This document shows positions 3,344-33,275 of a stretch of DNA of 64,000 bases, in pieces (the stretch's first letter is position 1; every line of letters starts with the position of its first letter). A program made the translations under genes and the position numbers. The notes under the pieces are model-generated. The model was not told the origin of the DNA and searched no databases. It saw only the letters and a list, made by a program, of their open reading frames with translations. Source of the stretch: Candidatus Levyibacteriota bacterium (GTDB lineage Bacteria > Patescibacteriota > Microgenomatia > Levybacterales > UBA12049); the NCBI GenBank assembly GCA_963790825.1, contig CAWBPM010000004.1:94987-158986 (forward strand), written 5' to 3'.

Positions 3344-3428
3344 CAGCGTAAGAAATTGCTTTGCAATTTCAACGCTGCTGGAACGTTTAAATTTCTCAGA
3401 AATTTATTACGTTCCGCCTTCAATAGAT

Positions 3429-11162: not shown

Positions 11163-11358
11163 ATAAGGACATCTATTTAGGTTAATTTCGCATTTTTCGC
11201 ATTTATAGTATATAAAGACAGGAATTTTCTTGATTACACCAATACTTTACATAAATCGAACGGGCTATTCTCAAATTCATATCTAACTTCTAATTTCTTG
11301 GGTGGCATTCTTTTTAATATACTATATTTATATGGTAGAATACAATTCAGCTGAGTTT

Positions 11359-12033: not shown

Positions 12034-12036
12034 AAT

Positions 12037-14652: not shown

Positions 14653-14675
14653 AAAATATTGTATATTTTATTACG

Positions 14676-16447: not shown

Positions 16448-16575
16448 TTAGAGATTCTATGCAATTCTAAAATTCATGGATAGTAAATTTACTAAAGCTT
16501 TTTTCATCACTCTCCTGGCAATTGCCCCTCCCCTCTCTTGACAACTCCCCGGAAATGTCCCACACTAGAGATATT

Positions 16576-18363
16576 ATGCGATCTGCCCTTGCGTATTTTA
16601 TGGGAAAAAAGTTCTTGTCTTTTTTGGCTGTCATTTTTTTTGCAGCTGTTTTTTTCTTCTCCCCAACATCCAGTTTTGCTCAAGCTACTGCTTCCTCTCA
16701 ACAGACCACACAGACACAAGCCGCAAACAATTATCTTTTCCCGAAAGTTGATCCGGGCGTTGAGCAGAATCAATCTACCTTTGTTCAAGCAATTTTCCTA
16801 GAATCGATGGCCGGAGTTATCTGTCAACTGGATGGAGTCGATCCCACCAATCCGACCCATGGCTGTTTAACGATTAATCCGCAGACACACGCCTTTACCT
16901 ATTCACCTCTCCCGCAAAATGGAAAAGTTGGCGGTCTCATAGGCTTCTCGACAGTTGCAATGGGCGGTCTATATACTCCTCCCGCCAGCAGCGGTGAGTA
17001 TTTTCGCGACTTGGCGTATAATTTCGGAATTGCCAAACCGGCTGAAGCATCCGGATTTGATCAACTGGTACCGCTTCTAAACATGTGGAAATTATCCAGA
17101 AACATTGCCTATCTCTTTCTGGTAATTGTATTCATTATTTTAGGCGTTATGATCATGCTTAGAGTAAAGGTAAATCCGCGGACCGTGATGACAGTGCAAA
17201 ACCAAATACCCAGAATTATTATCGGCATTCTCCTGATTACCTTCTCCTATGCAATCGCCGGACTACTGGTCGATGCGATGTGGGTTACCACTTATTTTGC
17301 GATTAATGAACTTTCAAATATTCCCCATGGCTCTGTCGGCGGAGGAGCAGCTACGGCAAGTATTCTAAACCATCCTCTTTCTTGGTTTAATGACGTCCTC
17401 AGCAATGCTCCAGTCCCTCCGGGCGCCTCCCGCGCGCCATACGACTGTGGCACTATTAACCTTCCGGGAGGAAGCATCCCCGTTAAAGGAATAGCGTGTC
17501 TTACGGGAAAAATAGGGGACAGTTTCACCACTCTTCTCTCAAATCTTATTTCACAAGTTACCGGATTTGATAATAATAATAAATGTAGTTTTACAGATCC
17601 CACGTCTTGGGTTACGGGGTGTTTATATAATTTTGTCTTCTGGCTTATACATTTCATCATAAATCTTATCATTCTTATTACTATAGTGATTCTCCTGTAT
17701 CGTGTTTGGTTTATGCTGCTTAAAGCTTACATACTTATTCTCATATACGTCGCAACAGGTCCCTTGTGGATTATTGCCGGCATGCTTCCGGGAAGTACTT
17801 TTGGTTTTATTCCTTGGATCAAGCGTCTTTTGGCGCACCTGCTGGTATTTCCCGGTGTTGTTGCGCTTATTATTTTCGGTTTGGATATTGCCTCATCTTT
17901 CTCGCAACAAACAGGGGGGACGAACGGGCTATTTATTCCTCCGCTGATTGGCAATGTCGCCAGTAACACTAGCCCTGTTGGTAATATCGGCTGGATGATC
18001 GCACTTGGCGTGCTGCTTTTAGCCCCTGAAGTCTTACAAATGCTGAAGGACGCATTCGGCTTAAAAAGAAATCCATACACCCCGGCAATCGCGCTCGGAC
18101 TGGCAGCGGGTGCTAATCCGCTCAACGCCGGAGCCAACGCAGGTTGGAGTAGACTGATGAGACCTGAGGATCAGATGCATAATGCAGGGGCAGCCAGACG
18201 GATGCTATTAACCGCTGCTAAACCAAGTACTACTGACAATAGATTCCAAAAGGTCGCAAGAGGCGTGTTAAAAACAGTGATAGTTCCAAATAAGTGGGAA
18301 ACAGGATCAAAGACAATACAACCACAACAACCTGTCCAAGGCCAAGGAGGAGGAACGCCATAA
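16576..18363 (+). CDS. VirB6/TrbL-like polytopic membrane protein with Sec signal peptide (putative T4SS inner-membrane channel component)
   Basis: Signal peptide MGKKFLSFLAVIFFAAVFFFSPTSSFA|QA, at least 6 TM helices in the central region, Gly/Ala/Pro-rich C-terminal tail. Track ORF starts at TTG 16522. Plausible ATGs at 16555, 16576 and 16600. Confidence 0.45.
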   Translation: MRSALAYFMGKKFLSFLAVIFFAAVFFFSPTSSFAQATASSQQTTQTQAANNYLFPKVDPGVEQNQSTFVQAIFLESMAGVICQLDGVDPTNPTHGCLTINPQTHAFTYSPLPQNGKVGGLIGFSTVAMGGLYTPPASSGEYFRDLAYNFGIAKPAEASGFDQLVPLLNMWKLSRNIAYLFLVIVFIILGVMIMLRVKVNPRTVMTVQNQIPRIIIGILLITFSYAIAGLLVDAMWVTTYFAINELSNIPHGSVGGGAATASILNHPLSWFNDVLSNAPVPPGASRAPYDCGTINLPGGSIPVKGIACLTGKIGDSFTTLLSNLISQVTGFDNNNKCSFTDPTSWVTGCLYNFVFWLIHFIINLIILITIVILLYRVWFMLLKAYILILIYVATGPLWIIAGMLPGSTFGFIPWIKRLLAHLLVFPGVVALIIFGLDIASSFSQQTGGTNGLFIPPLIGNVASNTSPVGNIGWMIALGVLLLAPEVLQMLKDAFGLKRNPYTPAIALGLAAGANPLNAGANAGWSRLMRPEDQMHNAGAARRMLLTAAKPSTTDNRFQKVARGVLKTVIVPNKWETGSKTIQPQQPVQGQGGGTP

Positions 18364-18400: not shown

Positions 18401-21400
18401 TTAAGTAGCAAGTTGTTCAGTCGTACTAGATAATCCTTTATAGAAGCTGGCGAATAAGGCCCCAAAGAAATCAAGCCATGATTCTCCTCGGGAAAATCTG
18501 GCCAGAAAATTCGCGCCAATCGGTTTTTCGACGTGTTTTTTCCACTGTTTCGCAGTAAGAAATCTGCCTTCGCGCACCTGAAGAGTCGCCTCATCATTAT
18601 TAATATTCTCTGTCACATATTTTTCGGGGCTTGTCATAAAAAACTCTCTGATCAGCTGGATCATGCCGTCAGAATATTTAGATACCGTGCTTTTTTTGTT
18701 AATATGCTCCAGGATATCCTGGCGTACAGTATACATAAGTATATTTTTGGCTAAATCAAATGAGCCGTCTGCACTCACCTTAGCCCGTTCGCTTCCCCAG
18801 ATTCTCCGCTCTTCCGGCGTTTGGCTATCCTGTACATTTTTTTCATCATATATTCCCATTTTCAGCAGTTCCGGTCCGAACATATGCTGAGCTACTGTAA
18901 TATCTTCAAATACCAAATCGCCTTTATGCTCTGGATCTTTCCTCCATGACCGTATCTTATGAGCATAGGGAATTTTCGTCATTTCTATATACCGGCAATT
19001 TTTATATATTTCACCCAAAACCTTTTCCCGAAAACCGGGTTCTACCACTAATCTTCCTAGGTAATCATAATGCAGGTTTTTTTCAAACTCAAAGCCCTGC
19101 CCATGCCGGATAAACTCTCCGAAATCGACCGCATTTAAAAAGTGGATGCCGGCATACCTATTTTCCGCGTCTCCTGGACACTCAAATTTCTGGTATTTCA
19201 TTTGCGTCAGATCAACTTCGCTTCCTTCTCCGCCCTGGAGCACCTCGGCAAGTGTTTTGGTAAAATCATCTCCCCCCAAGGGACGCATGCGAAGTGCATC
19301 AAACATGCTCAGCATAACATGCTTTAAGCCTCTCAGCGTTTGCGGATTGCCAATTTCGTTTTTATTTGTTTGGTTTTCACGAAAGGCTTGGAAATTCATA
19401 AATCTGGTCGGAGCAACAAAAGCCCTGGAGCCGGTTTCCTGCTTCGCGTCAACGATGAAATACTGAGCAAGGTTTTTTGCCCAACCTTTGGCATAGACAA
19501 CCTCGTCGCTGTCAAGTCTCAAGTTTTTACAGACTGCATCTGAAATCGCATCTTCGACATAAGTGGTTATGTCTTTGGGTATGTCAGCTTCGTTAAAGAT
19601 ATTTAGGTTTTCCAGTTTCAATCTCCCTTGCCCGTCAGTACTGCTTTTTGTTCCTAAAATAGCTAAAGCGAATTTTTCGTTATTAATTTTTTTGTTATTA
19701 CTGCCTTTTCCAAAACCGAAGTAGTCCCGGGGATCCTCAGTGACTCTTGACCCTCTTGTTCCTGGATTTAAATCTGCCAACTTACTGAGAAATTCCTCCT
19801 TAACACTATCCCTAACTGTTTTAGCATCTTCTTGTCTGATTTTATCTTTTTCCTCGTCTGTTAAGCGTGTCCTTTCTGCTCGTTCCCTTACGGCAATCCG
19901 CATCTCGGATAATTCCTTCATGCTGGCAAAGGTAATCTTAAATTCTCCTTCCCCAACCGCATCCTTTTTGGCTATTTCACCAATATACTCATCTACGATA
20001 AGCAGTCTCGACTCTAGGAGGGCATCGTCTTTAAATTTTTCTTCCGTCTTCTTTTTCTCTGCCTTAAGTATACCGAGAACATATTCTTTGTATTGCTGTT
20101 TATAGTAGACATTTGTGTCCATAATGCTGGCAGCCAACGATTGCCAGAAGACATCAATTCCCCGATCAATTACTACAGGCTCCAGATGCTTCTGTCCATG
20201 AGAGTCAGTAAGCTCGCGGTAGAGGACTCTCTTCTCTTTATACTCTGTACCCCGTTTTATGACCGTTCGCTGCTCCCGAACCAGCTTAACCAGTCCCTTT
20301 TCTGTAACTATCTTGCCCTTTTCCATAAGAACCGGTTCTAAATATTCCCCATCTGAAGATTGTACTTTCCGGTAAAGGGTCTCTTCTTTTTCCATTTTCT
20401 CTCCTTCTTTTACCTTTTCAGCGTCATCGCTAGCATAACCCAGCTCAATTAGTCCGTCCTGGGTAACCGTACCGTCGCCCAGAAGTTTTATAAATAGGTT
20501 CCTGTTCGTTACTGTCGGTCTGTTATCTTGACCGTAAATAATTTCTCCATTTTCCCCGTCTCCTCTTCTTTTATAGTTTTCTGCCCGCCGGAACGTATTA
20601 TGTGAGAGTTCTGACATCGCGTTAAACAAAAGTACCTGGGTTTGGATTGCCCGGCCGACTTCTCCTTGTACCTCATCTTCCGTATAATCCCGAAGTTCTC
20701 TTTTATCTCTTCTGGCTAGTTTCAGCATTCGAATACTCCTGGCGCTCTGATTAACATTTCCCGAATCGGTAAAAATGCTTTTTCTCGAGTGGGCCTGAAG
20801 TACTTCCATGTATTTTTTAATATCATTCCTGCCTGCCGTAAAAATATTCACTTGTTTATTGTGGGCAAGCGAGCGGAGCCAGGCCTCGTAGAGAAAGTTC
20901 ATTTTCATTTTCATAAACTCCGGGTCAACCTGAGTATCCCAGCTAGTTTTATAGACAACATTTCCCTCTTCATCTTTTAAAACCTTTTCCTTTTCATCTT
21001 TAACTTCTGCAATATGGACTCTTTTGCGTCTGGAATATTGGTTGATTTTGATCATTTCTAAAAGTGAGATTTGGGCAAAATAGGTAGGAACGCTGGTTAA
21101 AGACAGAAGGTCTACCTCGCTCATTCCGGCGGAAGCAATTTCCTCAACCGACCGCTTCCGAACCCAAGAGAGAAAATTATGGTACTGAATTTCGCCGCTG
21201 CTATCAACAATTTCATGCGATCCGCCGATGTGATATTCAGGTCCTGCATAGCTCATAAGTCGGAAGAGAAGTTGATCTAAATTTCTCGGCTGGACCTGAA
21301 AATCATACTCTTCGCTGTTTGGCGTATCATCTTTAAAGTATTTTTGTAAATCTAATGCTTCTATTTGTGTTGTTCTTTGTTTAAGCTGCTTAAGCGTCAG

Positions 21401-22753
21401 GCTGCTGGGATCTTCCTGCATAATCTCCTGGAATTGTTTTTGCATGTCGGGCGTGACGGTCTCAAGATGCCCCATATTTCGCCTGACATCCGTAATCCGC
21501 AGACGAAGACCATTATACTGGCGTCGCGCGTCGTCCAATAAACGACTCTGTTTTTCTATGGGGAATAAGTTATTATCTTCAATCTTTTTGATTTCTTCTA
21601 TTCTATATCTTACCTGCGCACCTAGAGACATACCGAAGATAACAGCATCTTCTTCTGTCATGTTGGCAATCCCCCGTCTCGCCGCCTCTGACGCGACATC
21701 CCCTCCTCGCATCGTTCCTGCCAGAAGCCTTGGCAACACATCGCGAAAAAAAGTATTCAATGCTTCTGTATCGACATTGCTGTCAATTAATGCATTAAAA
21801 TTATTTAAATGCGCCTCTACTCTTGGATCGGACAAATCCATTAACCTTCCGTCAAGTGCGCCGGTAATCCAAGCTCTTTTCATCGCCCTTGCACATTCGG
21901 ATTTTCTATCGGCAGGCGCCCTGAGAAATGCTTCCTGCAACCCTCGATTCAGGTCGCTAAGCCGCTCTTCTTCTGTCTGTCCCGCTGCTCCTCCTTGCTG
22001 CGATTTATTCAGTGTATCAGCAATTAGATCTTCATATCCTCGCGGCTGAGGAGGAATATTTGGATTAGAAGGATTCATTTGGAAAAATCCGGGCTCTAAT
22101 CCCCGATCTGTTTGCATAATGATTTCTGCTTGTCTTTGTATCTCCGGCGGAAGCACTCCCTGAAGTCTCTCTAAATCTTTAGGGGGTAATTGAGGTGTAA
22201 TCATCCTTGCTTGTTCACGCTTTTTATCTACTTCTCCAAAAAATTTGTCAACAGGAATCTCTTGACCTCTTACAGCCTTCATAATAAGTGTTCTAGCATC
22301 AATTGAAACACGCTCTAGCTCGGGATTTACTCTTTCAGCTTCTCTTTCTAACGGTGATTGCATTTGCAAATAGAGATCTGCAAGCGTACCCATATCTAGT
22401 GTTACTAGAGACGGATCTTCACTGGTTCTTTCCTTAAATGCTCTTAGTAAATATCTTGCTTCGGGGTCTCTAATATCACTCTCCTGTATGAGAATCGGGT
22501 GATCCGACCTAGGTTTTTCTTGAAGTTGTGTTTCTCGCCTACCCAGTTGTCCGTCTGCATTTCCTTCCTGCGCCATATTAATATCTCCTCTTAGTCTAGC
22601 ATAGCCTGCCTGAGGACGCGGTGTCAATTTAATAGGCATTTCCCCTTCAATACTCCTGAAGACTTCGGTTACATTTGGCGTAATAAGCCTCTCTCCTTCG
22701 ATGCGAGGCGTAAATGATTGCGTGCGAATTGGCATCCCTTCTTTCATAGCCAC
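18401..22753 (-). CDS. Giant (1450 aa) highly charged hypothetical protein, no signal peptide or TM helices
   Basis: Uninterrupted 4.35 kb ORF, Glu/Lys/Arg/Asp-rich, with an internal repeat LYRKVQSSDGEYLEPVLMEKG / LYRELTDSHGQKHLEPVVIDRG. No Walker motifs or known domains recognised. Confidence 0.6.
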   Translation of the reverse strand: MAMKEGMPIRTQSFTPRIEGERLITPNVTEVFRSIEGEMPIKLTPRPQAGYARLRGDINMAQEGNADGQLGRRETQLQEKPRSDHPILIQESDIRDPEARYLLRAFKERTSEDPSLVTLDMGTLADLYLQMQSPLEREAERVNPELERVSIDARTLIMKAVRGQEIPVDKFFGEVDKKREQARMITPQLPPKDLERLQGVLPPEIQRQAEIIMQTDRGLEPGFFQMNPSNPNIPPQPRGYEDLIADTLNKSQQGGAAGQTEEERLSDLNRGLQEAFLRAPADRKSECARAMKRAWITGALDGRLMDLSDPRVEAHLNNFNALIDSNVDTEALNTFFRDVLPRLLAGTMRGGDVASEAARRGIANMTEEDAVIFGMSLGAQVRYRIEEIKKIEDNNLFPIEKQSRLLDDARRQYNGLRLRITDVRRNMGHLETVTPDMQKQFQEIMQEDPSSLTLKQLKQRTTQIEALDLQKYFKDDTPNSEEYDFQVQPRNLDQLLFRLMSYAGPEYHIGGSHEIVDSSGEIQYHNFLSWVRKRSVEEIASAGMSEVDLLSLTSVPTYFAQISLLEMIKINQYSRRKRVHIAEVKDEKEKVLKDEEGNVVYKTSWDTQVDPEFMKMKMNFLYEAWLRSLAHNKQVNIFTAGRNDIKKYMEVLQAHSRKSIFTDSGNVNQSARSIRMLKLARRDKRELRDYTEDEVQGEVGRAIQTQVLLFNAMSELSHNTFRRAENYKRRGDGENGEIIYGQDNRPTVTNRNLFIKLLGDGTVTQDGLIELGYASDDAEKVKEGEKMEKEETLYRKVQSSDGEYLEPVLMEKGKIVTEKGLVKLVREQRTVIKRGTEYKEKRVLYRELTDSHGQKHLEPVVIDRGIDVFWQSLAASIMDTNVYYKQQYKEYVLGILKAEKKKTEEKFKDDALLESRLLIVDEYIGEIAKKDAVGEGEFKITFASMKELSEMRIAVRERAERTRLTDEEKDKIRQEDAKTVRDSVKEEFLSKLADLNPGTRGSRVTEDPRDYFGFGKGSNNKKINNEKFALAILGTKSSTDGQGRLKLENLNIFNEADIPKDITTYVEDAISDAVCKNLRLDSDEVVYAKGWAKNLAQYFIVDAKQETGSRAFVAPTRFMNFQAFRENQTNKNEIGNPQTLRGLKHVMLSMFDALRMRPLGGDDFTKTLAEVLQGGEGSEVDLTQMKYQKFECPGDAENRYAGIHFLNAVDFGEFIRHGQGFEFEKNLHYDYLGRLVVEPGFREKVLGEIYKNCRYIEMTKIPYAHKIRSWRKDPEHKGDLVFEDITVAQHMFGPELLKMGIYDEKNVQDSQTPEERRIWGSERAKVSADGSFDLAKNILMYTVRQDILEHINKKSTVSKYSDGMIQLIREFFMTSPEKYVTENINNDEATLQVREGRFLTAKQWKKHVEKPIGANFLARFSRGESWLDFFGALFASFYKGLSSTTEQLAT

Positions 22754-22818: not shown

Positions 22819-24231
22819 TTAGCTTACGAACTTAAAACCGCGGCCCTTTATGGTTATGAGATGGGCGGGAAGATTCGGATCGTCCTCAATTTTCTTTCTG
22901 ACTCTAAAGATAAGCTGATCTACTGCCTGATCCGTTACTCCGGCAGTAGAGCGAAACGCCGACCAGACAATCTGGATTATTTGCTCCCTGTCCACAATTT
23001 CATCCGGATGACTGAGGAGAAATTGCAGCAACCTAAATTCCGAACCGGTCAGCCGGTCTGAGAGAACTATCTTCCCTTTACGAATCGTATTGGTTGTGCT
23101 GTCATATGTTATTTGTTCATTTTGTGACGGCGTATTTCGCAGCTCCAAATCGAGAAGCACGCTAAAAAGCGGAATCTGTATTTTCCTTTCCTTGATAAAT
23201 CCGATATTGGAAAAGTAGGCTGCAGTAAGCTTGTCCTCTTCGTTACCCGGGAAATCACCGAGAATAAAACGCTGCTCTTCGGGAGAAAATGAGCGCCAGA
23301 TCTCCAAGAGTGCCCCCCGAACCGGCCGATGGGTACAAAGCCAGGATGCAAATTTCGTTCCTTTTGTCACCTCATTATTTTCAGTTTCCAAAACCGTTTC
23401 CATACACAGTCTGGTCAGCTTGCCGTGTCCCGCAGTCAGCTGCAAAATGCTAGTATAAAGAGACTCCGGCAATTTTTCCTCTGATACCTTTTCTAGATAC
23501 TCCGTCCTAAATTTCAGAAGCGACTTATCCTGAACATTCATATAGACAATATTTCCGGCTAAAAATTCATGAAACTCCGCAAAAAGTACCGGCTCTACTA
23601 TATCTTCAAGCGGTTTATTTAAAGAAAAAATGACTGAAAAACGGTATTTGGCCCGGTTACGAAGCACCCGAAGATTGGCAAAAAAATCCGAAGTTAGCAT
23701 CGGGACATATTCCTCGAACCGGTCAAAAAGGAAAACTATGGTCAACTCTTTTTCTATTGCCAGAAAATCAATCGCCCGTTTTAAACCCTGAAAGAGTACC
23801 AGCTCGTCCTCAAGAAGCAGACTTTCTTTGAAAATTTCAGTTACCGCCTGGTATTCTGTCAGCATACCTCGTTCTCTGAGAGAATCCGTCAAGGAAAGAA
23901 AAAGGAATTTTGTCACGTCGTAGAGATTTCGCCGTCTGACTTCTGAAAAACTAACAAGCATAAAGTGCATCCATTTCTCATTCTCTCCGAGATGTTTCTG
24001 CCTGCCTGCTTTGTTAAAAACCAGAAACTTCAGGAGATTTCCTCTACCAACTCCGGGTAGACCGACGAGCTCTACGGAACTTCCCCGTTGGATAAATTTC
24101 AATAAACCCGAGACTTCCTGAAAATAAGAATCTTCGGGGTAAAGCGATTCAAATCTGGTGGGTTCAATGGGTTGTGCTATTCTTTTTTGCATCATATATC
24201 TTATTGTACTGCGCCTCAAAGCTTTCTTCAA
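22819..24231 (-). CDS. Transcriptional regulator: N-terminal P-loop-like NTPase domain fused to a C-terminal OmpR/PhoB-type winged-helix DNA-binding domain
   Basis: C-terminus LTGSEFRLLQFLLSHPDEIVDREQIIQIVWSAFRSTAGVTDQAVDQLIFRVRKKIEDDPNLPAHLITIKGRGFKF matches trans_reg_C. N-terminal VGLPGVGRGNLLKFLVF is a glycine-rich loop lacking the canonical Lys. Divergent from the first pilin gene. Confidence 0.6.
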   Translation of the reverse strand: MKKALRRSTIRYMMQKRIAQPIEPTRFESLYPEDSYFQEVSGLLKFIQRGSSVELVGLPGVGRGNLLKFLVFNKAGRQKHLGENEKWMHFMLVSFSEVRRRNLYDVTKFLFLSLTDSLRERGMLTEYQAVTEIFKESLLLEDELVLFQGLKRAIDFLAIEKELTIVFLFDRFEEYVPMLTSDFFANLRVLRNRAKYRFSVIFSLNKPLEDIVEPVLFAEFHEFLAGNIVYMNVQDKSLLKFRTEYLEKVSEEKLPESLYTSILQLTAGHGKLTRLCMETVLETENNEVTKGTKFASWLCTHRPVRGALLEIWRSFSPEEQRFILGDFPGNEEDKLTAAYFSNIGFIKERKIQIPLFSVLLDLELRNTPSQNEQITYDSTTNTIRKGKIVLSDRLTGSEFRLLQFLLSHPDEIVDREQIIQIVWSAFRSTAGVTDQAVDQLIFRVRKKIEDDPNLPAHLITIKGRGFKFVS

Positions 24232-24259: not shown

Positions 24260-25102
24260 ATGGTTTATTCTGAATATATGAGAAAAATAGATTTACTTTT
24301 TATTATTCCACTTTTTCTACTGGCATTTTTACTGCTTTCCTCAGTTTCTTCAGCCGCCGACCCAACCGCCCCTCCAGCCCCAACAGCCGTACCTCCCACT
24401 CCCACCCCTACAAGATCTTTCACTATTTCAGTACAGCCTCCTGATGAAGTTCATATTACCCAAAGCGTTATTGTCACAGTAATTCAAGCTCCTCCTGACC
24501 ATCTGAGTGGAGGAGGTACATATAATATTCTTTTTATGCAATTAGATAATATACTGCAAAATTGCAATGGATTCTCCTGTGCCGGTTTTGGACCATTACA
24601 TTGTCCTACTGTTAGTTGTACATTTCCTCCCTATCAAGTTCTACTCGGTCCTGCCAGTATACTCATCATTCGTGTCACCTCTGCCGATACCGCCCCATAC
24701 GAAATAGATAAAGAGCTGACGATAAATGGCTCTGTCCCCACACCAACTAACGTTCCCACTTCTCCTACAGAAATTCCCCCCCCGCCTGCCTGCACTACTC
24801 CGGGTACCGGAGGAGAATGTGCTGGTGTCGACACCGCTATTGGACCGGCAAGCACCACGCCGAATGAATTGATCACTACTATTATGAGAATACTCCTTAG
24901 TATTTCAGGCGGTATCGCATTGCTTCTTTTAATCTATGCGGGTTATAAAATCCTCACTTCCCGCGGAAATCCTGAAACAGTAAAAGGCGCTCGGGAGCTG
25001 ATCACCTCGGCAATTGCAGGACTTCTCCTTATTATTCTCTCCCTGGTCATCCTGGAAGTACTGGGAGTTGACATATTGCACATCCCAGGATTTAGCCATT
25101 AG
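24260..25102 (+). CDS. Secreted protein with Pro/Thr-rich linker, globular domain and C-terminal VirB2/TrbC-like pilin domain
   Basis: Signal peptide, PTAPPAPTAVPPTPTPT linker, a Cys pair (PPPACTTPGTGGECAGVD), then SISGGIALLLLIYAGYKILTSRGNPETVKGARELITSAIAGLLLIILSLVILEV (two hydrophobic helices around a charged loop). Contains a C8 tract. Confidence 0.6.
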   Translation: MVYSEYMRKIDLLFIIPLFLLAFLLLSSVSSAADPTAPPAPTAVPPTPTPTRSFTISVQPPDEVHITQSVIVTVIQAPPDHLSGGGTYNILFMQLDNILQNCNGFSCAGFGPLHCPTVSCTFPPYQVLLGPASILIIRVTSADTAPYEIDKELTINGSVPTPTNVPTSPTEIPPPPACTTPGTGGECAGVDTAIGPASTTPNELITTIMRILLSISGGIALLLLIYAGYKILTSRGNPETVKGARELITSAIAGLLLIILSLVILEVLGVDILHIPGFSH

Positions 25103-25135
25103 AAAAGTAAACTCTACTTGCATTTCACCCGAATA

Positions 25136-26353
25136 ATGGTTTACTCTAAAAGTGTGAGAAAAAATGTTTATGTTGTTTTATATATAGTTATATTCGTTTT
25201 TGTTGGTTTTATTTTAGATACTGTTTTCTTTAGCGAAAAAGACTACGCTAATTCAGATTCTGATCAGGCGATTCTTACTTGTGCACAAGTTATACATGCG
25301 CCGGATTTTAAGACCTGTACAGGAACTATTGAAGATACTACTACCGGTACTGCAATACCCACTGCTATACTACATTTACACGTTAAGAGTACTAGTGATG
25401 GGGACCAGACATATCCCCTGACAAGTGCCAATGCGCTTCTTCAGCAGGAATTTACTCAACCACAAGACGGCTCCTATAAATATTGCGCCTACGCGAACGG
25501 TAGCCCGGGAGCCCCAAGCATAATATCTGTTTTTGCGAGTGCTATCGGATATGATGATAGTAACTCGATCGATATTCCCGGTACTACTGTGTGTCCACCA
25601 GGCGGAACAATTAAATTAACAAAGAAAGCTGCCGGTTCTCCTCTTGGCTACTATTGTACTATTCCTAATGGAGCACAACTAACAGACCACAATGCCAACT
25701 CCAGTTGTCAACAAGCACCACTAGATCCTGAAATTGCCCCTCATGTAACGATAGTGGGCTCTAATGTATACGCAACTGTAGATGCTTGCACTAATAATTG
25801 CAAAAAAGTCTTCTATGACAAAGAAATACCGGGAGGAGCATGTGGTATCGTGGGCCCTGATTTCTGGAACACGTATGTTCCCGCCATTGAAATCCTTGCT
25901 TGGTCGATGGATACATGTACCGCAACACAGCAATCCGGAGGAAATCCCCCAGCTACCGCTCCGCCTACCAACACCCCCGTTCCTCCTACTCCCACATCTA
26001 CTCCTCTTCCTCCCGAGCCGGCATGCACCCATAACACGGGTGGGGAATGTCCAAGTGTGGATACAGCACTCGGAGTAATTAATGTTGGCGCAGGAGGCGA
26101 AGTGGGCAACGAAGGAATAGTAACCAGCATTATGGGAGTGCTTCTCAGTATCTCGGGAGGACTTGCGCTGCTTCTGATTATTTACGCGGGATACAAACTA
26201 CTTACCTCCGGCGGAAATCCTGACACAGTAAAAGGCGCACGGGATCTCCTGACTGCGGCAATTGTAGGACTTTTGTTTATTATTCTCGCTCTGGTTGTCT
26301 TGCAGGTTATCGGCGTTGATATCCTGCATATACCAGGCTGGACTGGTGTCTAG
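25136..26353 (+). CDS. Paralogous larger secreted protein with C-terminal VirB2/TrbC-like pilin domain
   Basis: Starts MVYSKSVRK, like its neighbour (MVYSEYMRK). PPATAPPTNTPVPPTPTSTPLPP linker, EPACTHNTGGECPSVD Cys pair, C-terminal SISGGLALLLIIYAGYKLLTSGGNPDTVKGARDLLTAAIVGLLFIILALVVLQV. Track start 25118 is TTG, trimmed to ATG. Confidence 0.6.
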   Translation: MVYSKSVRKNVYVVLYIVIFVFVGFILDTVFFSEKDYANSDSDQAILTCAQVIHAPDFKTCTGTIEDTTTGTAIPTAILHLHVKSTSDGDQTYPLTSANALLQQEFTQPQDGSYKYCAYANGSPGAPSIISVFASAIGYDDSNSIDIPGTTVCPPGGTIKLTKKAAGSPLGYYCTIPNGAQLTDHNANSSCQQAPLDPEIAPHVTIVGSNVYATVDACTNNCKKVFYDKEIPGGACGIVGPDFWNTYVPAIEILAWSMDTCTATQQSGGNPPATAPPTNTPVPPTPTSTPLPPEPACTHNTGGECPSVDTALGVINVGAGGEVGNEGIVTSIMGVLLSISGGLALLLIIYAGYKLLTSGGNPDTVKGARDLLTAAIVGLLFIILALVVLQVIGVDILHIPGWTGV

Positions 26354-26374
26354 TTGAGTATATATAATAATTCT

Positions 26375-26692
26375 ATGCAAAAACTCTTAGCTTTATCTCT
26401 TCAAGGAACACCGATTGCAGCCCCCGGTAACGTTCCCACCGGCGGATTATCGCCAAATGGTTGGAATATTATCTATACGGGAATCTCTATTTTTCTCCTT
26501 ATTATAGTGGCTCTGGCTCTCATATTTCTCATTTGGGCGGGCATCAGGCTTACCATGTCGGAAGGAGATAAGGCAAAGGTTGATGCATCGAGAAAGCAGG
26601 CAATCTACTCCATAGTCGGACTCGTTATCGCCCTTTTGGCATTTGCCATTATAAATATCGTCGGCAATCTGTTTGGAGTACAGTTGTTCTGA
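26375..26692 (+). CDS. Small VirB2/TrbC-like pilin
   Basis: IYTGISIFLLIIVALALIFLIWAGIRLTMSEGDKAKVDASRKQAIYSIVGLVIALLAFAIINIV: two TM helices flanking a charged loop. Track start 26354 is TTG. ATG at 26375 is preceded by a TATATAAT -10-like box. Confidence 0.55.
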   Translation: MQKLLALSLQGTPIAAPGNVPTGGLSPNGWNIIYTGISIFLLIIVALALIFLIWAGIRLTMSEGDKAKVDASRKQAIYSIVGLVIALLAFAIINIVGNLFGVQLF

Positions 26693-26780
26693 GCTTTTTA
26701 GCACACATTTTACTTGCAATTATTTAACAACCTGCAATATACTAATCTTCTAGGCGCAATATGCCTCATCTATCCTTTAT

Positions 26781-28281
26781 ATGTCAAAAAAAGTAAAAAT
26801 AATATTTCTTGCACTCTGTTTGTTCTTTTTTATACTTTTTGCCTTCATAGGAGTCCTTAATCTAAGCATCGATTTCGGCTGGTACTTACGCATCGGAGAC
26901 ATTATATTAAACCATGGTTTTCCTAAAACTGATCCGATGATCTACTCCATGCCCAGCTATCCCTTTATTGACCACGAGTGGCTGGTTGAGGTTATAATTG
27001 CTTTACTTTACCCCTATGTTAAATTACTGGGAATCTCTGCTCTTTTTTTCCTTAATCGCCGTAGTATCGGTAGCATTGCCGGTTTACGCGTTCCGCTTAT
27101 ATCGCTATTGGCTCTTTATCCCCTTACTTCTGGCTTTAAGTACTCTTTTCTTCTACGAAGGGATCGCTATTGAAATGACCAGCTGGTTCTTCGTGTCCCT
27201 TCTCATAACTATCCTATTAAAAAATACTCTGTGGAAAAAGGTTAAATATTTAGTACCTTTTCTTTTTCTTCTCTGGGCAAATATACACGGCAGCTTTCCT
27301 TTGGGCATCGTTCTTTTATTGCTTTTTATAGGAGTACGCACAGTTACCGAAAGGAAGATTCTTCTATCTGATATTTTCGTCTTATTGAGCAGCATTTTCA
27401 TAACTCTTGTTAATCCGTACGGCATTAATCTTTGGCATGAAGTATGGATGCAGATGTCAGATACCGCGGCGCATCAGACAATTTCGGAGTGGCAGCCGCT
27501 GCTTTTCTCCGATGGATTTCATTTGCCTATACTTTGGGTGCTGTTAGTACTGGCAAGCTTTCTGTTCGTATTTTATAGAAGGCGGTACTCTGTTCTGGAG
27601 TTTGTGTTTTTTTTATTCTTTCTTCTCCTTGCTTTCAGCGCAAGAAGACAACTTCCGTTTTTGCTAATTTATTCGATGCTACCCATATATAGGGGCATTG
27701 GCTTTCTCTCCGCTGATGCCGTAAAGATAAAATATGGCGCGCTGCGGCTTCGAAACGGCATACTGCTCCTTATCGCCATAGTTCTAGTTCTTTCGTGTAT
27801 AGAGTTATTCTTCGGATTTCGTAATGCAATTCTTAATCCTTTGGTTATCTATCCTAATAAGGCAATTGTCTATTTGGAAAACCACCCCACTTCCGGACAA
27901 ATATTTTCAATTAACGAATGGGGCGGATATCTGGAATGGAAATTACCACAAAAACAGATATTCTCAGATGGCTTGACAGAAACTTGGAGGTGGCATGCTC
28001 CAAATTCGAAAGAAAGCGATAATGTGTTTATGGAGTATAAAAACATTATTCAGGGAAAAATTACGCTAAGTAGTACTGTTGAAAAATATAACATTGATAC
28101 GCTTCTTCTTTATAAACAGCAAACAATTAGCAAGCCGAATCCTCCGTTTATAAAATTTATAGATGCATTTTTACCGAATAAGAAAAAGACAAATAAAAAA
28201 TCAATATATACCCAAATAGAACAAATGGGATGGAAAATCGTCTATAAAGACAGTGTCGCGGTCATTTACCGCAAGCAATAA
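26781..28281 (+). pseudogene. GT-C-fold-like polytopic membrane protein split by a +1 frameshift at a T7 homopolymer (ORFs 26781..27173 and 26998..28281)
   Basis: Both frames read through TCTTTTTTTC (27043-27049). Upstream frame gives ...DHEWLVEVIIALLYPYVKLLGISAL, downstream frame continues FFSLIAVVSVALPVYAF... with at least 10 further TM helices. Removing one T fuses them into one protein of about 500 aa. Confidence 0.45.
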
Positions 28282-28405
28282 AGATACTCAGATGGCAGAC
28301 CTATATTAATTTTGCTCATTGTTTAGCCTTAGAAGCACCTCTTGACAAGAAGAAAATTCTATTGCAATAATAGATATAGATTAAATAAATCGAAACAATA
28401 AATAT

Positions 28406-28825
28406 ATGAGTACACAATTAAAAAAATTTGCAATCATTTCCTCAACAGTAGTACTTTACACATTAGCTGCTTCCCAGACTTTTGCTGCTGGTGCTGCTAG
28501 CTTTGGATCGGGGTGTAATGGTAGTTTTAGTGCTCTTTGCGGTAACAGCGCATCATTTGCTACTATCTTTAGTTGGGTTGTTAATCTCTTGTTCTTTGCT
28601 GCAATCGCAATTGCGCTTATCTTCTTAATTTGGAATGGTATTCGCTGGATTCTTTCCGGTGGAGATAAAGGAAAAGTTGATGAGGCAAGAAAAGGTGTTA
28701 TTGCAGCTCTGATTGGGCTTGTGGTTGCACTTGTTGCCTATTTCATCATCAATCTTGTATTAAATCTCTTGGGACTGGGTGGACTAAATTCTCTTAGTGT
28801 TCCCTCTATTACTCTTCTCTCTTAG
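28406..28825 (+). CDS. VirB2/TrbC-like pilin with signal peptide
   Basis: Signal peptide FAIISSTVVLYTLAASQTFA, Cys pair (SGCNGSFSALCGNS), then LLFFAAIAIALIFLIWNGIRWILSGGDKGKVDEARKGVIAALIGLVVALVAYFIINLV. Confidence 0.6.
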   Translation: MSTQLKKFAIISSTVVLYTLAASQTFAAGAASFGSGCNGSFSALCGNSASFATIFSWVVNLLFFAAIAIALIFLIWNGIRWILSGGDKGKVDEARKGVIAALIGLVVALVAYFIINLVLNLLGLGGLNSLSVPSITLLS

Positions 28826-28966
28826 TCTTTTTAGTTCTTAATTCTAACTTCTCTTCTTTATTGTAAGTTCTTCTACTCGTGATTGCGCTTGCCGCCCTGC
28901 CATAATTCGCTTTATTTATAGTAAGTTATATTCCTAAAAGCATATTTTTATGACATAATTTAGCAA

Positions 28967-30154
28967 TTGAGCAATATGTTTCTTTTTAAACACAGAATTT
29001 TACTCTTGCTTTTACTTCCATTAACCACAGTCCTTTTATATTGTTTTATCACAAACTTTTATTCCCTTTTCCCCTTGCAAACTTTCAGTTATTTCAATAA
29101 CTATAATCACTACATTGCTGATCCCCGCGCATCCGGTCAAAAATTTAATTTATTATTGTCGTTAGCGCCAGCTGATGCTCAGTGGTATTTAAAAATTGCT
29201 GATTCAGGCTATCCCATCCGTCCCCGTGTTATTTACTCCGGCAGTCACCAGACAATAGACGGCGCTACCTATGCCTTCTTCCCGCTCTATCCAATTACCA
29301 TCGCACTCGTTAATTTCTTTTTGAAAAACATTGTGTTATCTGCTTTTATTCTTACGCAATTACTATTCCTTCTTAATATTGTCAGCCTTTACTATGTCAT
29401 AAAGAAGTTGTATAACGAACAACTGGCCATAAAGACCTTGTTTCTCCTCTTTTTATTTCCTTTCAGCATTTTCTTTCGCAGTTATTTCAGCGAAAGTCTC
29501 TTTCTTTTGGAACTCATTTGGTTTAGTTATTTTCTTATTAAAAAAAGGCTATTTATAAGCTCTCTCCTGCTTGGCTTACTGCTTGTAACCCGCGGGAATG
29601 GATTATTCTTGCTGCCTGTCTTCTTTTGTGTTGTGTTTAGAGATGTGCAAAATCGTCGGTTATTTATTAAAAAGAGTATTCTGTATGGTTTTATTTTAAT
29701 ACTACCATTTTTAGCTTGGATCGCTTATTGCTACCTGCAAACAGGAAACGGTTTCTATTTTATTATTGCCAGAAAAGCCTGGTTCCAATATCCTTTTCCG
29801 CTTCCTCTTTTTTATAACATAGCATTGGTACTGCTTGTACGATACTTGCCCTTTCATTTCTTTCATCTCTCGCAACTTGATGTTTTTTTTGTAGTTCTCG
29901 ATATGATACTCTTGGTTTTTTCGAAAAAGTTTCTCCGTCCCGTACTTTGGTGGGTAGCATTTACTCTTTGGATAAGTCCTCTGTCAACTCAGGACGCCAT
30001 GTCCTCCACTAGGTTTCAAATTATCTACTTTCCCCTTTTCATCTATGCAGCGTATATACTAAAAGGAAGATGGTACTTGGCAACGCTTGTCTTCTTTTCT
30101 ATATGTCTGCTCATCGTATCTCTTCTTTTTGTTAACTGGTATTGGATAGGATAG
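28967..30154 (+). CDS. Polytopic membrane protein, GT-C-type glycosyltransferase-like (PIG-V/GT76-like WY..IA..GY motif)
   Basis: 395 aa, about 10 TM helices. First extracytoplasmic loop LAPADAQWYLKIADSGYP resembles the WDA..Y..IA..GY loop of PIG-V-type mannosyltransferases. Confidence 0.45.
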   Translation: MSNMFLFKHRILLLLLLPLTTVLLYCFITNFYSLFPLQTFSYFNNYNHYIADPRASGQKFNLLLSLAPADAQWYLKIADSGYPIRPRVIYSGSHQTIDGATYAFFPLYPITIALVNFFLKNIVLSAFILTQLLFLLNIVSLYYVIKKLYNEQLAIKTLFLLFLFPFSIFFRSYFSESLFLLELIWFSYFLIKKRLFISSLLLGLLLVTRGNGLFLLPVFFCVVFRDVQNRRLFIKKSILYGFILILPFLAWIAYCYLQTGNGFYFIIARKAWFQYPFPLPLFYNIALVLLVRYLPFHFFHLSQLDVFFVVLDMILLVFSKKFLRPVLWWVAFTLWISPLSTQDAMSSTRFQIIYFPLFIYAAYILKGRWYLATLVFFSICLLIVSLLFVNWYWIG

Positions 30155-30753
30155 ATATTGTACCTTTACCCAATAATCATTGCTATACTTTAGAAATAAT
30201 GATTGTCTTCAAATTCTTAATCATTGCTTTTCTCCTCCTCGTCGCAGCGATTCCCCTAGCGCTTATCGCTGCTTTCTTCTTCGGACCACCCTTCATTCCG
30301 ACCCCTAAAAAAACAGTAAAAGAAATGGTTGCGCTTGCCGGTATTTATAAAGGGGATACAGTACTGGACATGGGCTCTGGAGACGGCAGAATGCTCCTAG
30401 AAGCAGCGAAATGCGGAGCACGCGCAGTTGGCTGGGAAATTAATCTCTACCTTGTTTTATGGACAAAAATATTAGCATATCGTTATGGCGTTAATAGACT
30501 AGTAGAAGTCCATTGGGGAAGCTACTATCAGGCGGATTTTTCAAAAGCAAATGTCGTCTTTCTCTATGGTATTACTCACGAAATGGAAAAAATTGAACAG
30601 AAACTGCAAAAAGAGTTAAAACCTGGATCGAAAGTTATTTCTTATACGTTTGTTTTCCCGCATCTCAAGCCGACTAAAACCCTTTCCGAAAATTACTGTC
30701 TATACTATCGCCTGATTTCTTTCCTGCTATTATACTTATTGTATTTTATTTAA
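30142..30753 (+). CDS. Class I SAM-dependent methyltransferase with N-terminal TM anchor
   Basis: Motif I VLDMGSGDGRML, then an acidic post-I loop (AVGWEIN). N-terminal hydrophobic helix FLIIAFLLLVAAIPLALIAAFFF. Confidence 0.65.
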   Translation: MDRIDIVPLPNNHCYTLEIMIVFKFLIIAFLLLVAAIPLALIAAFFFGPPFIPTPKKTVKEMVALAGIYKGDTVLDMGSGDGRMLLEAAKCGARAVGWEINLYLVLWTKILAYRYGVNRLVEVHWGSYYQADFSKANVVFLYGITHEMEKIEQKLQKELKPGSKVISYTFVFPHLKPTKTLSENYCLYYRLISFLLLYLLYFI

Positions 30754-30774
30754 AGAGGAGTATACAATTAGCCT

Positions 30775-31095
30775 ATGGACTGGAGTTCTATTCCGGGATG
30801 TATTGGGGCACTAGGCGAAGCGCATTTACAATGCTTGCCGGCAGTGTTCCAAAATCTTATAAACGGCGCGCTTATTTTGGCAGGAATCGCTGCGGTTATT
30901 TTTATCATTCTTGCCGCGTACCGACTGATAACCTCCCGGGGAAACCAGCAAGGAGTAAGCAAAGCCCGGAAAACGCTTATCTTTGCAATTGCCGGTTTGG
31001 TAATTATTTTATTATCCTTTTTCCTGGTTAATTTTCTGGCAAATATTACCGGAACAAATTGCATCACCCAAATGGGCTTTACCAATTGCCAATAA
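30775..31095 (+). CDS. VirB2/TrbC-like pilin
   Basis: Cys pair GCIGALGEAHLQC, then LILAGIAAVIFIILAAYRLITSRGNQQGVSKARKTLIFAIAGLVIILLSFFLVNFL. GGAGG located 13 nt upstream of the ATG. Confidence 0.6.
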   Translation: MDWSSIPGCIGALGEAHLQCLPAVFQNLINGALILAGIAAVIFIILAAYRLITSRGNQQGVSKARKTLIFAIAGLVIILLSFFLVNFLANITGTNCITQMGFTNCQ

Positions 31096-31261
31096 CTGTC
31101 TATCCACTTTTCACAGAAAAGCTTGATTTTATACTATATTTGACATACTTTGTAGGACTTGCAATCAAATTTTTCACGTTATACACTGACTGGTATAGAA
31201 GATACTACTAACTGCCCGGAGGGAGCTTTTCTGAGGTGGGAATTAACTTCTAGATAAAAAT

Positions 31262-32611
31262 ATGGATAATCACCCGATTCCGCAAGACGTTACCGGATTT
31301 CAATTTAAACTTGTGGGCAGTATGACCGTAAAGCAATTTGCCCAACTTGCGGGGCCGTGCATTATAGCAGTTATTCTTTATTATTCCCCTTTTTTTATTC
31401 TGATAAAAATTATCGGTATTCCGTTTTTTGTTCTTTTCGGGCTTTGTCTCGCATTTGTTCCGATAGAAGGCCGTCCGATTGACGTGATGGCATCGCATTT
31501 CTTAAGAGCCCTTTTCGCTCCTAATCAATTTGTCTTCCATAAAATAGGGAGGCAGTTGGCATTTACTACTGTAGATTTAAGGCGTACTGCCAAAGAAAAG
31601 GTCTCTGTACATATTGATCCTCTAAAAAAAAAGCAACTTCAGGCATTTTTACAAAACGTTCAGAGTAGACCACAAAGCCCGTCTGACTCAAAAGAAGATG
31701 AGTTTCTTAAGTCTCTTGATTCGATCCAATTTCAAGGACCGGTTCTTTTGCCCGCTTCTTCGCCAATGCAGCAGCGAGGAGAGGCGGCTTCGCCAATAAG
31801 CACCAACCCCTTGCCTCCACAACCGCAAATGCCGCCAACAAAAAACATTGCGCAAACACAAAATCAGGCTTCCTTAAATCAACAAACAGCAGCACCTATG
31901 GACAATGTTAAGCCGGATATCCCCCTACCACAGATGGTTAAGCCATCAACTGCTGCTCAATCTATAAACTCGTCTTTGCCGTATGTTCCGCAGCCGAATA
32001 GTCTGCCTCAGAAGAATATTGACTCTACGCCAAACCCAAAGGAAAGTTTAGGACAGGAAGAACAACCCGAGTATAAGGAGACTGAGCAATTATCGCAAAA
32101 ATTAGATGATATCGCTCATGAGAAACAGAAACTAGAAGATGAGCTTCGGGCTTTAAAGAGTCAATTAGCCGGTCGGCAAACAGTTTCTGTTCCTATTGCC
32201 AAACCTGTAGATAGACAGGTAGAACAACCGGCTCAGGAGGAAGACAGCCCACATGTTTTGAAAGTACCAAAGTCCCTGACTACCAGCATTGGGGCTCCTG
32301 CTATGCCTGATTCTCCCAATCTCATTGCGGGCGTTGTGAAAGACCCAAGAGGAAATGTTCTGCAAAATATTCTGGTAGAGGTAAAAGATAAAGAGGGCAG
32401 TCCTGTTCGGGCGTTTAAAACCAATGCGCTGGGTCAATTCTCCTCAGCAACGCCACTAATAAATGGCGATTATACTATAGAATTTGAAGATCCAAAGGAT
32501 CAACATAAATTTGATACGATTGAACTCAGGGCGAGTGGCGAGATTATGTTGCCCATCGAAGTGATCTCGAGAGATGCGCGGGAGGAGTTGAGGCGCGCGT
32601 TATTTACCTAA
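31262..32611 (+). CDS. PrgI/VirB3-like membrane protein with long Pro/Gln-rich region and C-terminal domain
   Basis: N-terminus IPQDVTGFQFKLVGSMTVKQFAQLAG followed by two TM helices resembles PrgI-family (VirB3-like) proteins. Sits directly upstream of the VirB4-like ATPase, as in Gram-positive-type T4SS. Confidence 0.5.
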   Translation: MDNHPIPQDVTGFQFKLVGSMTVKQFAQLAGPCIIAVILYYSPFFILIKIIGIPFFVLFGLCLAFVPIEGRPIDVMASHFLRALFAPNQFVFHKIGRQLAFTTVDLRRTAKEKVSVHIDPLKKKQLQAFLQNVQSRPQSPSDSKEDEFLKSLDSIQFQGPVLLPASSPMQQRGEAASPISTNPLPPQPQMPPTKNIAQTQNQASLNQQTAAPMDNVKPDIPLPQMVKPSTAAQSINSSLPYVPQPNSLPQKNIDSTPNPKESLGQEEQPEYKETEQLSQKLDDIAHEKQKLEDELRALKSQLAGRQTVSVPIAKPVDRQVEQPAQEEDSPHVLKVPKSLTTSIGAPAMPDSPNLIAGVVKDPRGNVLQNILVEVKDKEGSPVRAFKTNALGQFSSATPLINGDYTIEFEDPKDQHKFDTIELRASGEIMLPIEVISRDAREELRRALFT

Positions 32612-32612
32612 T

Positions 32613-33254
32613 ATGAATACACCTGTCCAAAAAATTCACGCTTCAACGCAAAAGTTTACTGAAATTCAGGATATTTTTGATACCGTGGTGATACTAAACG
32701 GCGGTAATGCCTGCTTAGTTATCGAAGTTACTGCCAGTAACTTTGCTCTCTTATCCAGACAAGAGCAGGATATGAAAATCTTTTCCTATGCTTCGCTGTT
32801 AAATTCTTTAACCTTTCCGATTCAAATACTTATCAGAAACGAAAAGGTCGATATTACGTCCTACTTAAAGTCTCTTGAGGAAGCTGAGAAAAACACTCAA
32901 AACTCCCTGCTTCGCAAAAATATTGGCTTCTACCGGAATTTTATCAAAGAAATGATTTTGGTCAATACGGTTCTCAATAAACGGTTCTATATTGTTCTTA
33001 ACTTTTCCTCTCTGGAGGCAGGACCTACCGGCGTAAGCTTGACCGATAAAGTAAATTTCGCCCGGGTTGCCAAAAAAATGCTTGAGTCCAAGGCAGATTC
33101 CCTGCTTCCTGAGCTGCAAAAAATTTCTTCTTCCTCAAGGGTACTAGAGAAAGATGAGCTGGTAAAACTTTTTTATGAAATTTTCAATCACGAAGCAGTT
33201 GATGCTACTCAGGTAGCAGCAGATATAAAAGTGCCGATTATTACTAGTCATTAG
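32613..33254 (+). CDS. Hypothetical T4SS-associated protein (resembles the non-ATPase N-terminal region of VirB4/TrbE proteins)
   Basis: 213 aa with no TM helices. DTVVILNGGNACLVIEVTASNFALLSRQEQDMKIFSYASLLNSLTFPIQILIR is reminiscent of the VirB4 N-terminal domain. Translationally coupled (2-nt gap) to the PrgI-like gene. Confidence 0.4.
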   Translation: MNTPVQKIHASTQKFTEIQDIFDTVVILNGGNACLVIEVTASNFALLSRQEQDMKIFSYASLLNSLTFPIQILIRNEKVDITSYLKSLEEAEKNTQNSLLRKNIGFYRNFIKEMILVNTVLNKRFYIVLNFSSLEAGPTGVSLTDKVNFARVAKKMLESKADSLLPELQKISSSSRVLEKDELVKLFYEIFNHEAVDATQVAADIKVPIITSH

Positions 33255-33275
33255 TATTCATTAACATTCGTTAAT

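Follow-up and report, generated by a model that had tools for sequence, protein, structure and literature searches.

The large gene and its product

Here we describe a large protein-coding gene in a type IV secretion system (T4SS) cluster of Candidatus Levyibacteriota bacterium (assembly GCA_963790825.1, contig CAWBPM010000004.1), within a 64,000-nucleotide stretch that we call the window. The gene is a single unbroken frame at 18401-22753 on the minus strand, running from a GTG at 22753 to a stop codon at 18401-18403, and encodes 1450 amino acids (aa); it is the biggest open reading frame (ORF) in the 64 kb, the runner-up reaching 892 aa. An initial annotation had described a continuous 4.35-kb, 1450-aa ORF and the largest gene of the window, and both descriptions stand. 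The gene draws its interest from its setting: T4SSs are thought to be needed by ultrasmall Patescibacteria for life on their hosts, and in most clusters of the Microgenomatia-type T4SS a large, unannotated and structured protein occupies this fixed position at the VirB6 side.

There are three candidate start codons. The database copy of the protein (P0001, 1448 aa) begins at ATG 22747, two codons after the GTG, and a further ATG lies at 22639 (M39); judged from the sequence, M39 may be the true start, because the N-terminal motif described below begins at residue 41 here and at a median of residue 14 in the family.

The protein is highly charged, with D/E/K/R making up 31% of its residues (E 9.7, R 7.8, K 7.2, and D 6.6%), in keeping with the Glu/Lys/Arg richness reported at the outset. 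It has no transmembrane (TM) helix, since its highest 19-residue Kyte-Doolittle mean is just 1.2; no signal peptide is present, the N-terminus being hydrophilic; and there is no Walker A or other nucleoside triphosphatase (NTPase) motif. The protein matched nothing in Pfam, PHROGs, NCBIfam, or PADLOC, nor any chain of the Protein Data Bank (PDB) in a phmmer search—the initial annotation had likewise listed no signal peptide, TM helix, Walker motif, or known domain. The layout of the protein, with occupancy and identity taken from the family alignment and pLDDT (predicted local distance difference test) from the structural model, is as follows.

18401..22753, minus strand: large protein, whole ORF, from GTG 22753, with ATG 22747 (the database call) and ATG 22639 (M39) as alternative starts
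22562..22630, minus strand: N-terminal peptide motif KLTPRPQAGYARLRGDINMAQEG, aa 42-64, present in 59 of 80 full-length members (1.1 in shuffles) and also in sequence groups B and C, defined below
21314..22561, minus strand: variable N-terminal region, aa 65-480, occupancy 0.2-0.8, identity at most 0.12
20594..21313, minus strand: conserved block N, aa 481-720, occupancy about 0.9-1.0, pLDDT 93, matched in 71 of 90 family proteins
20144..20593, minus strand: window-specific insertion, aa 721-870, occupancy 0.01-0.30, modelled as low-confidence beta-hairpins (pLDDT about 45)
20315-20377 and 20159-20224, minus strand: two LYR..LEPV..(K/R)G copies inside the insertion, placed by motif positions
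19637..20143, minus strand: long-helix linker, aa 871-1039, up to 50% D/E/K/R, variable across the family
18524..19636, minus strand: conserved block C, aa 1040-1410, pLDDT 92 (aa 1041-1300) and 86 (aa 1331-1410), with conserved residues
18404..18523, minus strand: C-terminal amphipathic Gly/Ala/Ser-rich helix, aa 1411-1450 (ending ..ESWLDFFGALFASFYKGLSSTTEQLAT), a family-wide composition, modelled as one long helix (pLDDT about 72)

Given the family alignment, AlphaFold returned a confident model (pLDDT 79, predicted template-modelling score 0.82); from the single sequence, pLDDT was 34. The model is 54% helix and 11% strand and consists of two compact domains plus linkers. The initial annotation had considered a coiled-coil or helical protein likely; a coiled coil is not borne out. 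Foldseek found no relative of the model in the PDB or BFVD.

In its family form the N-terminal motif reads ELT-x(4-10)-[YL]-x-G(D)IFM-x-E-x-G. The variable region behind it is rich in Pro, Gly, and charge at first and helical later, with aa 401-480 modelled at pLDDT 87. Block N carries the motifs GG..E.., NF(L)xW.R.R, E.W, and G.VG.A, and the window copy retains G510, N526, W530, R532, E623, and G700. In block C, N1051 is invariant, and Y1087, R1125, G1135, R1254, Y1255, and H1350 are retained. The strongest family signature, YAE.WAFSM.YWTGI.ARNDT.A.GFDAWSK, is degenerate in the window copy (YAKGWAKNLAQYFIVDAKQETGSRAFVAPTR), which has lost WTG, ND (D1106 to E), GFD, and Y1124 (to F) and kept Y1087 and R1125; the full signature, extended by ..N..YR.RQ, is not matched by YAKGWAKNLAQYFIVDAKQETGSRAFVAPTRFMNFQAFRENQ of the window. 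By its sequence, the window copy is a divergent family member that keeps N1051 and most near-invariant residues, with the strongest motif degenerate. The C-terminal helix has a hydrophobic moment of 0.43 and a Gly+Ala+Ser fraction of 0.34 in the window copy, and its tail is predicted helical with a net charge of 0; family-wide, the moment lies at the 93rd percentile of each protein, and the Gly+Ala+Ser fraction is 0.29 vs 0.19.

The internal LYR..S.G..LEPV..(K/R)G duplication reported by the initial annotation does exist, at aa 793-813 and 844-865 with one indel between the copies; however, it is statistically marginal, since 0.075% of random window pairs align at least as well (score 54), which gives an expectation of about 0.4 per protein of this size. 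The insertion that carries it (aa ~721-870) is absent from almost all homologs, and the duplication is thus lineage-specific and not a feature of the family.

Neighbourhood, family, and conserved position

The genes around the large gene belong mostly to a T4SS block that continues toward the replication origin.

16522..18363, plus strand: VirB6-like partner, 613 aa, with signal peptide, external domain, five TM helices, and basic cytoplasmic tail; convergent with the large gene
22819..24231, minus strand: regulator, 470 aa, with a C-terminal OmpR/PhoB-type winged helix (Pfam Trans_reg_C, 1.9e-17; NCBIfam)
24260..35345, plus strand: rest of the T4SS block, with pilin-domain, PrgI, TrsD-like, and VirB4 genes
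From 24260, 25118, 26354, and 28406, plus strand: four T4SS_pilin-domain genes (Pfam/NCBIfam domain scans)
31262-32611, plus strand: PrgI/VirB3-like gene of the T4SS block
32613-33254, plus strand: TrsD-like gene of the T4SS block
33276-35345, plus strand: VirB4 gene of the T4SS block
39203-40318 and 40568-41977: dnaN and dnaA, beyond VirB4, placing the locus on the chromosome near the replication origin

The initial annotation had placed the gene inside a T4SS-like locus, and the scans confirm this: pilins, PrgI, TrsD-like, and VirB4 lie on one side and the VirB6-like gene on the other, its 3' end 37 nt from the large-gene stop. Pfam misses the window copy of the VirB6-like protein; 2 of its 13 orthologs match TrbL/VirB6 (best E 4.5e-7), and the earlier VirB6-like label therefore holds. 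The regulator lies 65 nt from the large gene on the same strand and diverges from the pilin genes; its N-terminal ~370 aa are not a receiver and contain a degenerate P-loop-like GLPGVGRGN. Between 16.5 and 39 kb there is no VirD4-like ATPase.

The protein had been called an orphan, which an exhaustive HMMER search with aa 251-1450 against 1.84 billion cluster representatives refutes: 90 representatives were found at E<=1e-3, 58 at <=1e-10, and 18 at <=1e-30. Nearly all of the 90 are 900-2000 aa long—counting the positional ORFs introduced below, lengths range from 830 to 2021 aa, with lineage-specific insertions—and they have in common two colinear blocks, corresponding to window aa 481-720 and 1040-1450, in the same order. 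A word-indexed protein search, whether started from the single protein, the 58-sequence alignment, or a compact block-C alignment, returned the query alone or nothing, so that index fails to reach the family. A Pfam and NCBIfam scan of 34 homologs gave no credible domain, only isolated single-member matches at E>=1e-3, and alignment-based profile searches (A3, A4, A5) of PDB sequences gave noise alone. Like the window copy, the family lacks signal peptides and TM helices. Where the sources name the proteins, they are given as 'hypothetical protein [Patescibacteria group bacterium]'; the genome matches are Patescibacteria metagenome-assembled genomes (MAGs), several labelled Levybacteria, and the taxonomic breadth of the family is as read from pattern-limited scans.

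The position of the gene is better conserved than its sequence. We compared 21 other distinct loci, comprising eight family members viewed on their contigs (including some at the edge of detection, E 2e-8 to 9e-5) and 13 from a genome scan with a block-C profile of 12 typical sequences, against which the window proteins were then queried. Wherever the contig suffices, all 21 loci show the same order—VirB4, TrsD, PrgI, pilin array, winged helix-turn-helix (wHTH) regulator, and large protein—converging on a VirB6-like gene across a gap of 2-130 nt. In nearly every locus the regulator is the neighbour of the large gene, on the same strand or diverging from it. In some genomes AbiE, PIN, TPR, or EamA insertions part the regulator from the large gene; none parts the large gene from VirB6, and the genes beyond VirB6 vary from genome to genome. 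The initial annotation had suggested a survey for co-occurrence with T4SS genes, and across these 21 loci, contig permitting, no homolog was found outside a T4SS context.

The reverse test gave the same picture. A scan of metagenomes with a VirB6-like profile yielded at least 567 confirmed matches, from which 80 loci were kept, 48 of them with at least 2.5 kb downstream; in 43 of the 48, a convergent ORF that is about 30% charged begins 2-100 nt after VirB6 and either measures 830-1700 aa or runs off the contig, with the regulator and pilins next wherever the contig allows. Some VirB6-like partners are much longer than the 613 aa seen here, with ORFs of 700-860 aa (L023 7932-10514, L037 7201-9714, and L013-L015), so VirB6 length varies within the clade. 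Several MAGs labelled 'uncultured Gammaproteobacteria' (L008, L010, L016, L018; CAZKJM01, CAYMDS01, CAYWEJ01) carry the Patescibacteria-type T4SS cluster, and their taxonomic labels therefore look wrong; in CAZKJM01 the large-gene/VirB6 pair is found on two contigs.

The positional ORFs fall into several sequence groups. About a quarter of them (8-11) are recognised by block hidden Markov models (HMMs) or by jackhmmer from the window protein as belonging to the same family, group A; the remainder form group B (n=25) and group C (n=12), neither of which is reached by jackhmmer from the window protein. In hhalign comparisons B and C are homologous end to end (99.9%, E 8e-34), B and A give one colinear 824-column alignment at 59% probability (E 9e-5), and C and A reach 5%. 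With the last two values at that level we do not claim common ancestry of the protein bodies. What the three groups have in common is position, size, charge, a peptide at each protein's start, and a hydrophobic or amphipathic segment near its end. Among ORFs that reach their N-terminus within the contig, 19 of 20 in group B and 5 of 6 in group C carry the shared peptide, M(K/T)E..(E)LT..(L/Y)..G(D)IFM.E.G.G.

The C-terminal segment sits 25-35 residues before the C-terminus. The median top 17-residue Kyte-Doolittle hydropathy (KD17) in the last 45 aa is 1.09 in group A, 1.81 in B, and 1.74 in C, vs 0.16 for internal windows. In groups B and C the segment is TM-like, with a maximum KD17 of at least 1.6 in 26 of 37 ORFs; in the window copy and most of group A it is amphipathic, Gly/Ala-rich, and below TM level. 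The segments of groups B and C carry a conserved W..(F/L)RD motif (group B examples are L028, L070, L073, L079, L082, L090, and L097), and because this motif is conserved there, the group B segment may be a specific docking helix or helical hairpin rather than a plain TM anchor. In 74% of group A members the 15 C-terminal residues carry a net positive charge (family median +2).

The large protein is the fastest-diverging gene product of the cluster. Relative to the window copies, its median identity is 25% over an aligned query fraction of 0.41; the corresponding values are 35% and 0.82 for the VirB6-like protein, 43-45% and 0.35-0.90 for the pilins, about 44-52% (median 47%) and 0.96 for the wHTH regulator—the best-conserved non-ATPase gene of the cluster—54% and 0.99 for TrsD, and 69% and 0.88 for VirB4. 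The idea that the window copy is simply a degenerate outlier was rejected: pairs that leave out the window diverge equally fast, and fast divergence is therefore a property of the family.

Several other features of the window stand apart from the large gene. Among the pilin genes lie those for two 7-TM proteins and a small methyltransferase-like protein (26998-28281, 28967-30154, and 30142-30753, plus strand); one of the 7-TM proteins has a weak resemblance to a cell-surface glycopolymer formation family, a possible hint of pilin or surface modification. Abutting the VirB6-like gene, 11302-16447 holds glycosyltransferases, a PglD-like acetyltransferase, and a DegT aminotransferase at a G+C fraction of 0.29-0.32, vs about 0.42 elsewhere; because the genes past VirB6 vary in other genomes, this cluster was probably acquired horizontally as a glycan island. 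Further out, five tRNA-Ser and two tRNA-Arg genes cluster at 3.2-9.1 kb, among which ARAGORN places a tRNA-Ser with anticodon ACT at 3780-3865 (plus strand), near a tRNA-Ser with anticodon GCT at 3254-3344 (plus strand); an A at position 34 of a Ser tRNA is unusual.

Candidate roles of the large protein

Association of the large protein with the T4SS is strongly supported, because its gene lies within a conserved T4SS block and keeps its strict pairing with VirB6 even between deeply diverged genomes. What the protein does there is a question that we approach from gene neighbourhood, composition, and predicted structure. Our leading reading, held tentatively and at slightly less than an even chance, is that it is a cytoplasmic, membrane-associated T4SS accessory subunit working with VirB6; we infer the cytoplasmic location, the docking to the membrane or VirB6, and the scaffold or adaptor role. 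Among the candidates named by the initial annotation (effector, scaffold, or cytoskeletal element), a scaffold or adaptor is thus the one we favour; a translocated substrate is kept as an alternative, and a cytoskeletal or SMC-like protein is unsupported.

As an accessory subunit, the protein would be made in the cytoplasm, as suggested by the lack of an export signal and TM helix, and would fold as two compact conserved domains, with helical linkers between them that are variable and highly charged. The C-terminal amphipathic or hydrophobic helix would hold it at the inner membrane face beside the VirB6-like channel, leaving the N-terminal peptide available to bind a different component of the cluster, for instance VirB4/TrsD or the regulator. 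In this way the large protein would supply in trans the hydrophilic domain that the extended VirB6 proteins of host-dependent bacteria carry in cis; it may also give substrates a place to dock, the cluster having no VirD4.

Several observations weigh against an accessory subunit. The C-terminal helix of the window copy and most of group A is too weakly hydrophobic for a TM anchor, and the tail of the window copy has no net charge. Divergence faster than that of every other cluster gene, pilins included, is unusual for a core structural subunit, and no fused form of VirB6 and large protein occurs among the 90 representatives. Convergent genes are not co-transcribed, so the argument from adjacency is weaker than it would be for an operon. 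The sequence comparisons leave homology of the group A body with those of B and C only suggestive, and the physical link to VirB6 or the membrane is one that we infer from position, composition, and predicted structure.

The same rapid divergence would be explained by a translocated substrate or effector, the main rival reading, which we consider possible but less likely than the accessory subunit. The N-terminal peptide, the basic C-terminal tail, or both would then be the recognition signal; the body would diverge under host-driven selection, and the C-terminal helix would insert into the host membrane after delivery. Consistent with this, identity is only 25% over 41% of the length, vs 43-45% for pilins and 69% for VirB4; lengths vary from 830 to 2021 aa, with lineage-specific insertions; groups A, B, and C retain short terminal motifs around hypervariable bodies; and the C-terminal tail is net positive in most members. 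Patescibacterial T4SSs mostly lack relaxases and are suspected protein exporters (PMC12102498; PMC10633639), and the hydrophilic domains of extended VirB6 proteins have been proposed to be surface-exposed or released into the target cell (PMC7648143). However, occurring once, and always in the same place, in genomes that have diverged deeply is the pattern of machine parts more than of effectors; the cluster encodes no VirD4-type receptor, and no chaperone-like or immunity-like gene is adjacent. In addition, polar residues are invariant in the two large domains, both of which are well folded, and the tail of the window copy is not basic.

A more specific version of this proposal, which we regard as unlikely, is that the essential Patescibacterial T4SS has as its cargo the large protein and its positional equivalents, giant and hypervariable proteins that would be recognised via ELT...GDIFM and passed through the VirB6 channel, with the C-terminal helix entering the host membrane and the two conserved domains acting on the host. 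If true, the Candidate Phyla Radiation (CPR) would have its first identified T4SS substrates, and the motif would be a new type of T4SS export signal.

It is improbable that the large protein serves as a signalling or regulatory partner of the wHTH regulator, for example as a membrane-tethered sequesterer or activator that adjusts pilin and T4SS expression to contact with a host or to how the T4SS stands. The regulator does adjoin the large gene in nearly every locus, divergent or co-directional with a short gap (65 nt here), and has a DNA-binding output domain with no recognisable receiver input domain; however, mobile insertions part the two in some genomes while the VirB6 pairing stays intact, high conservation is seen in the regulator (47-52% identity) but not in the large protein, which sits poorly with tight co-evolution of the two, and 1000-2000 aa is big for a sequestering factor.

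A cytoskeletal, SMC-like, or housekeeping protein that merely lies near T4SS genes by the replication origin is hardly credible: although the protein is large, charged, and 54% helical and dnaA and dnaN are close by, Walker A occurs in just 2 of the 90 members, the structure prediction that the initial annotation had put forward as a check gave no housekeeping fold (the Foldseek matches to MukB and Rad50 are noise, at E>1 and a template-modelling score below 0.1), the gene is internal to the T4SS block and tracks VirB6 rather than dnaA where outer neighbours differ, and it diverges far more quickly than expected of a housekeeping gene. Relaxase, VirD4, SMC, and polymorphic-toxin identities were rejected as well, no defining feature of any being present; for the relaxase domain, neither the window protein nor the 34 homologs gave a Pfam or NCBIfam match, and the mostly helical model has no PDB match.

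Comparison with known secretion systems

Rickettsiales have extended VirB6 proteins, whose hydrophilic domains are large (PMC7648143), and structure-based annotation describes SEML1_0011 and SEML1_0013 of Southlakia epibionticum as VirB6-like with an ARM-like extension (PMC10633639 Table S2). We take these, together with Rickettsiales RvhB6/VirB6-1..4 and the TraG proteins of the F plasmid and SXT, as the nearest comparators. In both cases a large, hydrophilic, variable, and often charged mass is tied to VirB6 in a host-dependent bacterium with a reduced genome, and for the extended VirB6 mass docking, surface exposure, and release have all been proposed as roles (PMC7648143; PMC12857230; PMC10633639). 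In contrast, the large protein is not fused to VirB6 but has its own gene, which converges on that of a short (540-730 aa) VirB6-like protein; unlike extended VirB6 or TrbL, it has no TrbL/VirB6 domain and no TM helices, and none of the 90 members is polytopic. The likeness lies in size, charge, variability, and association with VirB6.

A second comparison is with the coupling protein VirD4 (type IV coupling protein, T4CP). Like it, the large protein would possibly form a cytoplasmic mass at the membrane beside the channel, able to receive substrates; unlike it, the large protein has no P-loop NTPase, no N-terminal TM helices, and no Pfam or Foldseek similarity, and it cannot energise transport. 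Outside T4SSs, the ruler proteins of type III systems, FliK and YscP, carry a terminal signal and a C-terminal domain that are both conserved, with a middle part that evolves fast and varies in length, and are single-copy in their clusters. This likeness is one of analogy alone—the secretion system is a different one, there is no similarity in sequence or fold, and nothing in the present data ties the length of the large protein to pilus length.

The system as a whole resembles the Patescibacterial MPF-FATA-like T4SS (PMC12102498; PMC10633639): the window has VirB4, TrsD, PrgI/VirB3, and a VirB2-like pilin array, with dnaA and dnaN nearby and no relaxase nearby. The survey of Patescibacterial T4SSs by Quinonero-Coronel et al. 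2025 lists VirB1-, VirB2-, VirB3-, VirB4-, VirB6-, VirB8-, TrsD-, and T4CP-like components, reports VirB6 as scarce in Microgenomatia, and shows genes with no profile match in grey in its synteny figure (PMC12102498); a T4SS review covers an equal inventory (PMC12857230). VirB6 is probably present in Microgenomatia but divergent, which would explain the reported scarcity (PMC12102498), since Pfam misses the window copy, 2 of 13 orthologs match, and at least 567 relatives are found in metagenomes.

The T4SS is essential for epibiotic growth in the single species tested, Southlakia epibionticum (PMC10633639). The system works with no coupling protein or relaxase nearby (PMC10633639, PMC12102498, PMC12857230), and the large protein is a concrete candidate for either a missing machine part or its substrate, with specific terminal peptides. 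A large soluble protein paired with VirB6 is not described in the texts of PMC12102498, PMC10633639 (Wang et al. 2023), or PMC12857230; the large-protein family and the VirB6-like identity of its partner are therefore additions to the known T4SS inventory, the former a new, previously unannotated component of a known system.

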